Positions 9,219 through 42,635 of a stretch of DNA of 64,000 bases are shown in pieces. A program made the translations under genes and the position numbers. The notes below the pieces were generated by a model. It worked only from the letters and a program-made list of their open reading frames with translations, searched no databases and was not told the origin of the DNA. Numbering within the stretch: the stretch's first letter is position 1; every line of letters starts with the position of its first letter. Source of the DNA: Eledone cirrhosa (Eukaryota). The stretch spans positions 22,258,001-22,322,000 of the forward strand of contig OZ024748.1 of assembly GCA_964016885.1 (NCBI GenBank). Direction: 5' to 3'.

Positions 9219-9458
9219 ATTATTATTATTATTATTATTATTATTGAATGCCATGGTTGACGGAGGCTCGGCTCTGTAAGGTATAGTAATTTTTAACCGT
9301 TAAAACAATTGTAAATTGTTTAAAACTTGAACCAAATTGTTGATAAAGACACCCTCCTCCTCGTGAGAGGGGTCTTTCTGTCCGTTATTTGGCCCTTCGG
9401 GGTTAAATAGCCAGTTATTGGGGTTTTGTACCCAAAATTTCATTTTAAACAAAAAAAC

Positions 9459-11559
9459 ATGGCTACCAAAAAAAAAAAAATTTCATACGTCACTCCCACT
9501 CATTCCGTCTTCTTCTTCCTCAATCATCACTACAGGAGAGAGAAGATTGTCTCTCTCCCTCCCTTCTTTAAATGTGTCTCTCTCCCTACCTTCTCTTTCG
9601 CAAGCGACGAAAGAAAAGAAAAGTCTCGTGCAAAGCGTGCAAGGTTTCTCCACGACGACGACGACAGCGACGAAACAGGTGTGCGGGAAATACGAAAACC
9701 CAGTTCATTCGTCTGACGTCAGGAATAATAGCAGTAGCAGCCGTAATAACAACAGCAACAGTGACAATGAAAACAACAGTAGCAGCCGCAACAGCATCAC
9801 CAGCAGCATAAACAACAACACCATTAGCAGCAGCAACACCAACAACAACCACAGCAACAGCGGCGGAGGCAGTAGTCGTAGTACCTGCAGCAACAACAAA
9901 AGTACCAGCAGCTCTGACGACAACAACAACAGCAGAGAAAAACCAATCTCATTTGCAGGTATTGCGAAAAACCTGGAAACAATCCTCATAACAAATGAGG
10001 AATTAGAGGAAGCGAAGAAGATGGTGACAAAGAACGGACACCGAGCAATCTGCAAGGCAGCGAAAAATTTTTTCGAAACCCAAGAGCACTGTACGGTCAC
10101 GTACCGTACAGTAAGTACAAAATCCCGTAGGGTGGAAAGAGCCACAGAGGCCCAAATACAAAAAGCCTTGGGGTCTGTGTGGCAGAGGAAAACGCACATC
10201 ACCCGAGGCAAAAAATACGCCACCGTAGACGTACTTTTTGCCACACCCCAGGAGGCAAAGGCCCAATCAGTAGTGACCCTAAGGAGCGAGGAAATGGTGT
10301 TGGTGCCCTCCTACTGCGGGCAAAAAATTGTGAGGGTCAAACTGACCCACGTCCCCCCCGGAATGACCCCTTCTTGGCTGGCCGCGTCTGTCCTCGTCGG
10401 AATCGAGGACAAAACAACTGTACTGCAAGTACAGAAAAAAGTAAGAGAAGATTGGGTCGGCTCCTCCATTGAGATGCTAATACAAACCAACCAGGAGTGC
10501 ATCGAAGCTATCCCGGATGTGATAGACTTCGATAACGGCACTCAACTGCCCATAAGTGTTGAGGGCAAACGCCCGAAATGCTTTCGCTGTGGATCGAAGA
10601 CTCACCTCAGGGCCTTCTGCAACGAGAAGACCCTGAGAAAGGAGAAAACCCCCCTCCTCCCGAATCCGGTTCCACGGCTACCAGCAACAGGACAAGCGGC
10701 AACCAGGAACGATAGGTCCGTGGCACCCATACCCACTCCACGGAAATCAAAGACAGCAGCAGCAGTGGAAATATTAACAACAACAACAGCAATACCAAAT
10801 GCAGCTGCAACAGAGACTCCAGTGCAAACATCACCAACAACAACAAGTGAAAGAGTGGAGCTGGTACCCCTCCCCGACCTTACAGAATCAGACATGGAGT
10901 GTGAGGTGGGAGAGGGATGGCAAAAGGTCTCAAGAAGGCACAAACGCAGAAGCAGCGCATCGTCGCCTTTGAAAAGGGAGGAAAGAAATGAGAAAAGGGT
11001 AAAGTCTACTGCAAAGAGACCCACAGCAGCAACACCACCAACACCATCACCACCCACACCAGCACCACCATCACCACCGGCGACAACCCCACCGCCAACA
11101 ACACCTTCAACACCACCACCACAAGCACCAACATCGCAAACACAACAACAAAACACACACACCCAGCAACAACGACAAGAAAATAGCAGAACCACACCCC
11201 ACCCCCAGAAAAACAAATGCACGGCAATAAACACACACAACAAGAAACTAATGACTTACATAATTGAACACACAGACATTTCACAACAGGACTACATAAT
11301 ACCAGCACCAATCAAAACGCCAACTAACATAAGACTGCTAAAAATAGCACAGAAACAATACACAAACATTAAAACGAAATTCCCCAACGCAGTTGGTGAT
11401 TTCAGGGACCTAGGAGGAACCATTAATCGAAGAGTATATTCAGACATTCTCTTAGAAGAGCCGACGACCAGCCGAAGGGACGATTCAACGGTCCCTTCAC
11501 CAGACGATCAAGTGAAAAGGGATGTAAAAACCATCCCTCCTCTACCAAAAATACGGTAA
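9459..11559 (+). CDS. ORF1 gag-like nucleic-acid-binding protein (copy 1; ATG 9459 is out of frame because of an A13 run)
   Basis: CCHC knuckle CFRCGSKTHLRAFC, basic WQKVSRRHKRR motif; the track start at 9418 is TTG; the in-frame ATG is seen in copy 2. Confidence 0.8.
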
Positions 11560-11594
11560 GTGGTCTTTCCCATCTTTTCCACTCTATTTTAAAC

Positions 11595-41600: not shown

Positions 41601-42039
41601 TGGAGGTGCCGTCAGCCGGGCATGTCCGAGATGCGCGCAGGGCGACGAAACCGTCCTGCACGCACTCGTCCAGTGTCCGAAAATTGCTGACTTGTGGGTT
41701 TATGTCGAACACCTGCTGTCGCGTTTAGGACGGATCCAGCTATCATCTGAGTCTATCGTGAGGATTGCCCCGCCCTCCTCCTTTAGCCGGGAAGGGCAGG
41801 CAGTTTTTATCTGTCTGGTGGCCATGGCGAAAGAGATAGTATGGTGGACACGTTTGAAAGGGCTGAAGACGAGCACTTACCTCTTCGGTGATGCTCTGAT
41901 TGACTTTTTCAAATTTCATTTGAAAAGGAAAATCAGAGTAGAGAAGGAAGTGCTCTCTTCCCAGCATTTTGTTGAAAGATGGGTGAGAGAAGCAAGAATG
42001 GCCCGAGTGAATGGGCCGACTCTGAGTATATATCTGTAA
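38620..42039 (+). CDS. ORF2: APE endonuclease - reverse transcriptase - Zn finger, 1139 aa
   Basis: Same motifs as copy 1; three amino-acid differences seen (K/R, L/Q, T/M). Confidence 0.97.
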   Translation: MTSLRIGSINARGLGSSWKQGHLLNDLRSLNIDVVAISETRISEARAFAPIFGGYDVYASPSRPGSGGGVAVLFRRGLDLAIRAIFLDPEGKLVVLDVTSGDGQAFRLVAVYAPTGAGRPDFFRRLETFLGTSRSLVLVGDWNGILDARWDCVGLADRGGGCKSLTNLLRRFELSDRYRLDFPNVPMWTWTNRIGSSRSYLDRVFCREIDRSSIGCPQFKIVSYTDHKFVICVLDLDRLHRRGPGYWKLNASLPARKAYRDRISELVKRALTGAIVNNKWWFALKRAIRIESIRFSKALAIEKNRAEGELVRKLDEALSKGIATDVLAAKLALDQFFNAKHEGCVVRARVRALRHEGTKAVQWARVAEARRGNKATIRSLVDHDGRMLLDPGQMCEAFQRHFAQLFGGSGGPGRGMDFSVYLDGLPRLSATEARCCEKPITAAEVREAMTGCTRGKSPGLDGLPYELYVQMPDLFGGLLADVYCNWQQNGRIPSSVSRGAVALLRKDPNKGDNIDNFRPITLLNTEFKILAKVLAKRLALVVGGLVGEAQTCAIPDRSIHDNLHLMRYIVERVAREPGTGGSLINLDQSKAFDRVDHRYLAAVLRAAGFGPVFRGWIAAMHSDICSVVRVNGHLSEPFNIMRSVRQGCPLSSLLYVLTLEPLLHKLETLRGVPRELGCGRSVSAYADDVTVVVSNAKHIEAIGTTLREYEAVTGAMINQEKSVGQQLGTWRGRSMPSNSVVGRWTDGPVKLLGVWFGPDLQMDKNWDEVTSRVASLTQKWAERKLSLKGRAEVANAYIASVICYRLTVVPCPKPRLTALERLLFRFLWKGRAPMVRRSICCQHPLRGGLGMPWLMMRRHALRLRHLHLFLDGDQVWSPFARRVFPQLVSLTELQSWVKRRPRGSAWRLECLQALTALDQSGNVIGGNSTSAFYRGLVEGKSDDVLGETLGVDENQLANLFGRTFGPGPMDNFQKSLAWQCYRGALPVRDKLYRHGGAVSRACPRCAQGDETVLHALVQCPKIADLWVYVEHLLSRLGRIQLSSESIVRIAPPSSFSREGQAVFICLVAMAKEIVWWTRLKGLKTSTYLFGDALIDFFKFHLKRKIRVEKEVLSSQHFVERWVREARMARVNGPTLSIYL

Positions 42040-42635
42040 ACTAAAGGTGGAAAACTGGGAGAGGGCACTTGCCTTGGTGGTCAGGGTCATTGTGGCTTTT
42101 TACTGGGCTTTCTCCACAAATGTCCCTCCGAAGTCTCCCCCCTATTGGGGAATTTTTCATTGTTATTTTCATTGTTATTTTTGTTACATCCTCTGTTTTT
42201 GTTTTTTTTACACGCAGAAATGCCCATTTGTACCGTCCTGCATTGTCCTGCACTGTCCTTAATGTCTACTTTATGTAAACCCTTGTGGTTAATAAAGAAA
42301 TCATTATTATTATTATTATTATTATTATTATTATTATTATTATTGTTATTGTTATTGTTGTTGTTGTTGTTGTTGTTATTGGCCAAGTTTGCAGAGAGGA
42401 TCGTTTTTTATTTCGGGGTTAGCATGTTTCTTATCGGAAGCACAAGCTAGTAGTTCTATAGATCAAAGAGAAAATTATGTTTATGTCAATAGACGTTCAT
42501 ATTTCAAAGGTGGTAACTCTCACATTACGTTCGATTGTAGAGTTAAGGTGGCACCTTGGATTGAAGTTACTCAACTGACGGAGGACAGACGTCAGATAGA
42601 GCGGGGACATGACGGCAGACAGAATATATGTAATC

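Follow-up and report, generated by a model that had tools for sequence, protein, structure and literature searches.

Several long interspersed elements (LINEs) that carry an apurinic/apyrimidinic endonuclease (APE) insert preferentially into microsatellites. The targets named in PMC3812793 and PMC4494074 are ACAY, AC, TC, TTC, TTCC and TTTC repeats, with Kibi in (TC)n, Koshi in (TTC)n and crocodilian Tx1 elements in (TTCC)n or (TTTC)n, and the former source describes how APE-type elements come to target microsatellites as poorly understood. TAA repeats are targeted by the R4 clade members Dong, DongAg and the snail element DongBg (PMC3812793); R4 is counted as a clade with a restriction-like endonuclease (RLE) in PMC4640811, whereas PMC3812793 puts Dong among the APE types. 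Here, we describe a LINE of Eledone cirrhosa, two full-length copies of which lie in a stretch of 64,000 nucleotides (assembly GCA_964016885.1, contig OZ024748.1, positions 22,258,001 to 22,322,000, forward strand), hereafter called the window. They belong to a young, high-copy and active LINE family, which very probably targets (ATT)n. Like Kibi, Koshi and the crocodilian elements, it is an APE-type LINE in a microsatellite, but its target is ATT rather than a pyrimidine-only repeat and its host is an invertebrate. With the Dong elements it has the repeat in common, and a Dong-like LINE is its usual neighbour; however, it possesses an N-terminal APE domain and a pair of open reading frames (ORFs), and ATT, not TAA, stands on its sense strand.

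Other described systems resemble single aspects of this family. The target-preferring element Tx1-Mar likely moves SINEU, a short interspersed element (SINE) with the same target, and tandem insertions are described for this pair (PMC4494074); there, a Mariner transposon serves as target and small nuclear RNA (snRNA) gave rise to the SINE head, whereas the SINE described here uses a five-base motif and is extremely abundant. R2 elements with upstream target sequence on their RNA produce uniform full-length 5' junctions by annealing of the cDNA to the target (PMC3774820), but R2 is RLE-type and has a ribozyme like that of hepatitis delta virus, whereas a search for a ribozyme was negative here and the leader is putative. 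In the stringent LINEs ZfL2-1/2 (PMC4176376) and in a monocot L1 lineage (PMC3747384), a variable stem with a conserved loop near the 3' end is common to LINE and SINE; these elements are without target specificity, and the stem predicted here has only 4 bp. For Octopus vulgaris, 13 recently active L1-Tx1 and five Dong-R4 families have been reported, and the word 'target' is absent from what PMC13282606 says on them; the relevant portions of PMC8967140, PMC4824008 and PMC3124438 contain nothing on targets either. An earlier inspection of the window from its letters alone (the sequence-only reading) knew of no (TTA)n-specific APE family in molluscs. The literature searched likewise holds neither an ATT- or TAA-specific Tx1 family nor an octopus Tx1-SINE pair, although Repbase or Kojima and Fujiwara 2004, outside the search, may hold one. 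Since TAA targeting in a mollusc is already known for DongBg (PMC3812793), only the APE/Tx1 case can be new.

Two near-identical copies of a two-ORF LINE

The two copies and the tracts that adjoin them are as follows.

9246..15276, + strand: LINE copy 1, type A, full length, 6,031 bp
9459..11559, + strand: ORF1 of copy 1, with a frameshift in an A-run behind the ATG; an open stretch of 512 aa starts at 10021
11595..15014, + strand: ORF2 of copy 1, 1,139 aa, with APE endonuclease, reverse transcriptase (RT) and C-terminal zinc motif
15252..15264, + strand: predicted 3' hairpin of copy 1, 4-bp stem and CUUGU loop, common to older subfamilies and the SINE
36275..42302, + strand: LINE copy 2, type A, full length, 6,028 bp, with ORF1 and ORF2 both open
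36491..38584, + strand: ORF1 of copy 2, 697 aa; a C-x2-C-x4-H-x4-C knuckle can be made out in its sequence
38620..42039, + strand: ORF2 of copy 2, with PF03372 (22-210), PF00078 (511-754) and PF13966 (974-1026)
42278..42290, + strand: predicted 3' hairpin of copy 2
9219..9245, + strand: (ATT)9 between the 5' end of a truncated Dong-like LINE and copy 1, 27 bp
15277..15354, + strand: (ATT)26 3' of copy 1, 78 bp, perfect
36252..36274, + strand: (TTA)n tract 5' of copy 2, 23 bp
42303..42381, + strand: (ATT)14 running into (TTG)n, a compound microsatellite whose ATT part spans 42 bp

The copies are 99.4% identical (25 substitutions and short indels) and start 27,029 bp apart on the same strand, with identical first and last bases and without poly(A). 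Their outer flanks are unrelated, since a self-alignment of the window ends at the tracts. The sequence-only reading, which had described two full-length copies of about 6.03 kb in the same orientation 27 kb apart, common terminal bases without poly(A), 23-27 bp of upstream (TTA)n, unrelated outer flanks and a tract behind copy 2 that degenerates to (TTG)n, was thereby borne out; the three amino acid replacements that it had counted between the ORF2 sequences were recovered exactly, in addition to nine silent codons. Copy 1 shows no substitution against two copies on another contig.

The element consists of two separate ORFs, the second of which encodes an N-terminal APE, an RT and a C-terminal zinc motif. 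The domains listed for ORF2 stem from a Pfam search run on copy 2; the best solved-structure relatives of ORF2 are L1 endonucleases, and the catalytic motifs are present. The ESM Atlas yielded nothing. ORF1 of copy 2 matched no Pfam family above the cut-off. In copy 1, ORF1 read from its ATG yields 85 aa compared with 697 aa in copy 2 owing to the frameshift in the A-run, which could be a homopolymer error.

The 3.0-Gb genome contains 9,913 occurrences of an exact 20-mer from the 3' end and 2,413 of a 24-mer from the type-A 5' end. Among 45 full-length type-A copies, in which best matches are over-represented, 27 have both ORFs open. The thousands of copies and the intact ORF pairs extend the recent activity, earlier proposed for the window, to the whole genome. 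Older subfamilies (about 75% identity) likewise end before ATT. A second 5' type, B, combines a different 5' region (about 66% identity where alignable) with a 95-97% identical ORF2. Compared with the window copies, the type-B copies L072, L075 and L100 have a different 5' untranslated region (UTR) and ORF1, with the switch near element position 2266, and L074 resembles a further chimera; the A/B pattern suggests modular swapping of 5' halves. At L096:6324-6664, where the first 8 bases of the 5' end are joined to the last 333 bases, the copy is an internal deletion or a template jump.

The repeat at the 3' junction

Genome-wide, 7,687 of the 9,913 exact 3' ends (78%) are followed by TTATTATT within 0-3 bases, a count into which some places enter twice. 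A sample of 89 ends was taken from 80 regions in the first 47 Mb of contig C1, the last five being chosen from a list of ATT-followed ends. ATTAT continues 81 of these 89 ends, and at least 9 bp of ATT follow 72, compared with 0.3-0.4% of background bases that lie in such tracts. In background sequence, tracts of at least six units cover 36 of 90,720 and 84 of 51,640 bases, and because they are so sparse, the flanking ATT is not due to chance. By the methods of PMC4494074, target preference means that a single sequence type makes up more than 20% of the flanks; here, the share is 78% at the 3' ends and 91% at the young 5' ends. (TTC)n was seen only within compound tracts or at two truncated 5' ends. 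Thus, the (ATT)n preference that the sequence-only reading had put forward from two copies holds across the genome.

Whether the repeat is target or tail can be judged from copies with merely 3-6 bases of ATT at their 3' side (L154, L082, L068, L095 and L141), which run on into (CTT)n, (ACT)n or a minisatellite; these copies rule out a fixed (ATT)n tail. The truncated copy L141 is flanked by a 16-bp duplication of an imperfect tract starting with ATTATT and the truncated copy L082 by a duplication of about 14 bp starting with ATTA, and L124 is located in an ATT island within (AGT)n. The truncated copy L095 lies in a single ATTATA of a minisatellite and was later duplicated along with it. Elsewhere, matching pairs of left and right neighbours, which are paralogues only, are joined by 9-75 bp of ATT without a LINE. 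We conclude from these junctions that the insertion site pre-exists, as the sequence-only reading had supposed, and that the repeat would be mostly target rather than tail; a few repeat units may be RNA-borne.

The 5' junction and a possible RNA leader

Out of 1,687 young 5' ends, 1,600, 1,537 and 1,244 are preceded by five, six and seven perfect ATT units, respectively, which means that about 1% drops out with each unit as far as the fifth, 4% with the sixth and 19% with the seventh. In full-length copies of two unrelated 5' types, each of the 101 distinct 5' contexts ends in ATT, 96 of them with at least 18 perfect bases. Full-length and truncated copies were compared after 13 of the 89 sampled rows (rearranged, unresolved or duplicate) had been removed by hand. 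At least 9 bp of upstream ATT were found in 43 of 44 full-length but only 13 of 32 truncated copies, and 18 bp in 38 of 44 and 6 of 32, respectively (Fisher p 3e-9 for 18 bp); among truncated copies of at least 98% identity, 6 of 11 have upstream ATT. Three of the truncated copies without it show short readable duplications, three adjoin another microsatellite and ten have no repeat upstream at all. Four of these ten immediately adjoin Dong-like sequence, in keeping with a loss of target DNA or a subsequent deletion, the explanation assumed for the repeat-free copies. The full-length copies L121, L154 and L068 have little pure ATT to the right and pure tracts to the left.

Because of the 18-base floor, and because upstream ATT is found in few truncated but most full-length copies, part of the upstream tract probably belongs to the RNA, by analogy with some R2 elements. 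By a narrow preference, we place the start of this putative RNA leader within the flanking repeat, about 18 nt upstream of the element. No 5' fold of the element was better than those of shuffled sequences. The sequence-only reading had expected truncated copies to begin in (TTA)n, which is the case for 13 of the 32 and fails for most; it had also taken the upstream (TTA)n not to be a fixed part of the element, which agrees with the pre-existing target at the 3' junctions and is called into question by the 18-base floor.

A SINE as the likely passenger

The genome contains 150,743 exact 3' ends of a 185-bp SINE, 123,857 of which are followed by ATTAT. In 30 consecutive copies, ATTAT continues 26, and duplications of 11-20 bp flank 22. 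Where SINE and LINE are neighbours, they lie on the same strand in 16 of 17 cases, and the duplications of both start with ATTAT and are similar in size (11-20 bp for the SINE, 14-16 bp for the LINE). The SINE tail and the tails of all LINE subfamilies align gap-free on the 4-bp stem and the CUUGU loop: 90% of 88 cells pair, compared with 11-51% in slid controls, and changes occur on both sides in four of four pairs, although these scores are inflated by related sequences and the set was picked by its shared pattern. Hairpin register and loop of the SINE are closest to an older Tx1 subfamily, and end-to-end alignments of SINE tails with two Dong-type 3' ends were no better than shuffles. The SINE head is tRNA-like by eye only, since ARAGORN found no tRNA in the window. 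At L085:748-929, a SINE has inserted into a type-B LINE, within its 5' UTR; the duplication there measures 15-17 bp and starts with ATTATT.

Taken together, the common tail, strand and duplications make it likely that the SINE is mobilised by the LINE enzyme. If so, the recognised motif is probably ATTAT rather than a long repeat, and the preference of the LINE for long tracts would need extra RNA pairing.

Placement among Tx1-like elements

In a quick RT tree of 63 rows, the family forms its own clade with an Argonauta protein and relatives of 40-46% identity (support of 100 in the Shimodaira-Hasegawa-like approximate likelihood ratio test, SH-aLRT), and this clade is nested in a set with Keno-like elements flanked by U2 and U1 snRNA genes. 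The Argonauta protein is the only named close protein (74% identity over 41% of the query). Membership of the Tx1 clade is likely, short of proven, because the rows include no labelled Tx1, Kibi, Koshi or L1 sequence. Of the Tx1/L1-type assignment made by the sequence-only reading, the L1-like endonuclease, the RT and the two ORFs thus stand, and the grouping with Tx1 is likely. A single ORF with C-terminal CCHC motif and RLE, as in Dong/R4, was not found; the APE is N-terminal, and the element lies far from its Dong-like neighbours in the tree. Nor does it share the (TC)n, (TTC)n, (TTCC)n or (TTTC)n targets of Kibi, Koshi and their relatives, as the prevalence of ATTAT at the sampled ends shows.

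A 3' poly(A) tail is usual in the L1 group, although it does not define it. Such tails were seen in the relatives L184, L185 and L187; they are absent here, where the ends pass straight into ATT. Relatives from metagenomes (32 loci) are distant, with best segments of 21-53%, and none of the 13 whose ends were inspected has ATT flanks, three lying at U2 and one before U1. Among these Tx1-like elements, L184, L187 and L192 lie at U2 snRNA and are Keno-like, L189 lies at U1 according to Rfam, and L185 lies at U1 by eye only.

Proposed mechanism and alternative explanations

We consider it probable that this young two-ORF APE LINE inserts in fixed orientation at ATT repeats, with an enzyme that likely nicks the AAT strand just before the ATTAT motif and primes reverse transcription there. 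The ORF2 protein would bind the 3' RNA hairpin with its CUUGU loop in place of a poly(A) tail and, judging from the junctions, the nick would leave a primer able to anneal to a few AUU at the end of the RNA. In the readable cases, the second strand is cut about 11-20 bp further on, so that the duplicated target starts with ATTA. If, as we lean towards assuming, the full-length RNA starts about 18 nt upstream in the flanking repeat, the cDNA end would anneal to the target and give the uniform ...ATT|G junction; truncated cDNAs would join by microhomology, often with loss of target DNA. The repeat remains on both sides, and therefore copies stack head to tail and share tracts with the Dong-like LINE on the opposite strand. 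As a last step, the LINE enzyme would likely mobilise the SINE as well.

Several results weigh against this mechanism, in addition to the scarcity of upstream ATT in truncated copies. No true empty allele was seen: in four public read runs over 8400-16600, no joint skipped the element, which counts neither for nor against, as repeats are passed over in such mapping and the left flank is itself one. For the leader, no start site was found, and no Rfam ribozyme family matched at E up to 10 over 36200-36700. The SINE sits at isolated ATTAT motifs and, unlike the LINE, in none of 30 cases in an ATT run of at least 12 bp. The hairpin region folds no better than shuffles (z -0.79), and one SINE tail, when aligned locally to the type-A end, gave no significant match (710 of 2,000 shuffles); end-to-end alignments of SINE tails with Tx1 ends beat shuffles (0-8 of 3,000), but these tails had been pre-picked by their shared pattern. 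Moreover, the nesting among snRNA-inserted elements comes from a quick search and has an SH-aLRT of only 88.

An element that carries the repeat itself, with (AUU)n at both RNA ends, might insert at short ATTAT sites, the long tracts then being its product and lengthened by slippage. The 18-base floor upstream of full-length copies and the lack of upstream ATT in 19 of 32 truncated copies would follow from this, a short motif can be enough, as the SINE shows, and interruptions near the 3' junction are not copied leftward in L117, L121 and L122. We nevertheless regard such an origin of the tracts as improbable in view of the copies with 3-6 bases of ATT at the 3' side and readable duplications, of upstream tracts of up to 83 bp running into (TTC)n or (AGT)n, of the matching empty paralogous joins, which carry tracts, and of the Dong-like element with its own (TAA)n-flanked ends that half of the copies adjoin. 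That there is no targeting at all, the copies being an assembly duplication or merely surviving in microsatellites, is scarcely credible. Near-identical tandem units do exist and could be over-assembled; however, the window copies differ at 25 sites and have unrelated flanks, thousands of dispersed copies have a common strand and phase, which contradicts mere survival or duplication, and the pattern is clearest in the youngest copies.

Two further alternatives would each replace a single step of the preferred mechanism of target-primed insertion at ATTAT. The 18-base floor may reflect not a leader but an 18-bp duplication, generated by two phased cuts in pure (ATT)n, both of which would fall at the T-A step. 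SINE duplications are often 16-19 bp long and the spacer lengths of an array on contig C4 fit a 15-bp duplication, so this is a serious possibility, albeit one we are inclined to doubt: full-length L121, L154 and L068 have 3-13 bases of pure ATT on the right and at least 27 bp on the left, SINE duplications end at any base, and therefore the second cut would be without phase, and truncated copies show no floor. The SINE, in turn, might be moved by another LINE (RTE, L2, CR1 or other Tx1), having inherited its tail and site or acquired them convergently. The primary similarity of its tail to the young type-A end is weak, SINE and LINE differ in their use of long tracts, and the partner comparison covered the Tx1 ends and two Dong-type ends among the LINE families of the genome. 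On the other hand, the SINE has the same hairpin register and loop, nearest to the older Tx1 subfamily, the same strand relative to ATT and the same duplication start and size, and its tail lacks similarity to the two Dong-type 3' ends tested, which makes a different LINE an unlikely partner.

Arrays, the Dong-like neighbour and other features of the window

Head-to-tail stacking is frequent, with 18 of the 89 sampled 3' ends followed by another 5' end of the family. A five-unit head-to-tail array (L112-L116, G000:C2:188.05-188.08 Mb) contains a third unit that differs by 13-14 substitutions and is, judged by these differences, of another lineage. In all of its spacers, the tract is interrupted as in the first 5' flank and not as in the last 3' flank; the array could have arisen by sequential insertion with homology-guided joining or by duplication plus conversion. 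The tandem copies L126 and L127 have a repeated spacer of 180-240 bp with two ATT tracts and (AT)n/(GT)n between them, and two tRNA matches lie 3' of a LINE array (L133:8050-8121 and 9310-9381).

Of the 89 copies, 45 have a Dong-like LINE within 300 bases, and 50 of the 52 matches point the opposite way. It carries RT, C-terminal CCHC and PD...D motifs, and its own ends are flanked by (TAA)n; by these motifs and flanks it is classed as Dong/R4-like and of the RLE type. The LINE and the Dong-like LINE use the same tracts from opposite strands. Another 3' end that recurs on the minus strand (L013, L111 and others; 8 of 89 right flanks) has a (TAA)n tail and encodes an R4-like C-terminus; it probably represents another Dong subfamily. 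The left side of copy 1 consists, in order, of two plus-strand SINEs, (ATT)31, a minus-strand truncated Dong-like LINE and (ATT)9:

7865..8043, + strand: SINE copy, short type, ending in the common hairpin tail, then ATT
8062..8267, + strand: SINE copy, long type, with an (ATT)n tract directly 3'
8268..8361, no strand: (ATT)31 tract, bounded by the 3' ends of the SINE and of the Dong-like LINE
8359..9220, - strand: 5'-truncated Dong/R4-like LINE that retains the 3' end and the C-terminal part of the coding region; 95% identity to the longer copies L103 and L111

The window further contains a 343-aa ORF (28291-29322, minus strand) that by eye looks like the GIY-YIG end of a Penelope-like element, without a Pfam match above the cut-off, between a pair of inverted repeats (about 27816-28307 and 29568-30113). 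Long tandem arrays lie at 21865-24958 ((AAC/CAC)-rich, 3.1 kb), 45064-48112 (22-bp unit, 140 times) and 54971-55468 (39-bp unit, 13 times, with an open frame).

Significance

In a tentative overall picture, an APE LINE may have arrived by convergence at the target of Dong, but from the opposite strand, with a nuclease that reads ATTAT and repeats at both RNA ends that home to long (ATT)n, and the same enzyme may have driven a SINE to 150,000 copies. The lifestyle as such is familiar to specialists; new to them would be the target, the use of its two strands by this LINE and by Dong, and the leader, which the sharp 18-base floor predicts. The system combines an intact active enzyme, thousands of natural junctions and a SINE, its probable passenger, from which the bare cut site can be read. 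It provides a candidate partner for the dominant SINE of the genome and an explanation for the stacked LINE arrays. If the picture is true, annealing as in R2, which is not described for the L1 group, would occur in this family, and one genome would show an intrinsic site, that of the SINE, beside an RNA-assisted site, that of the LINE.

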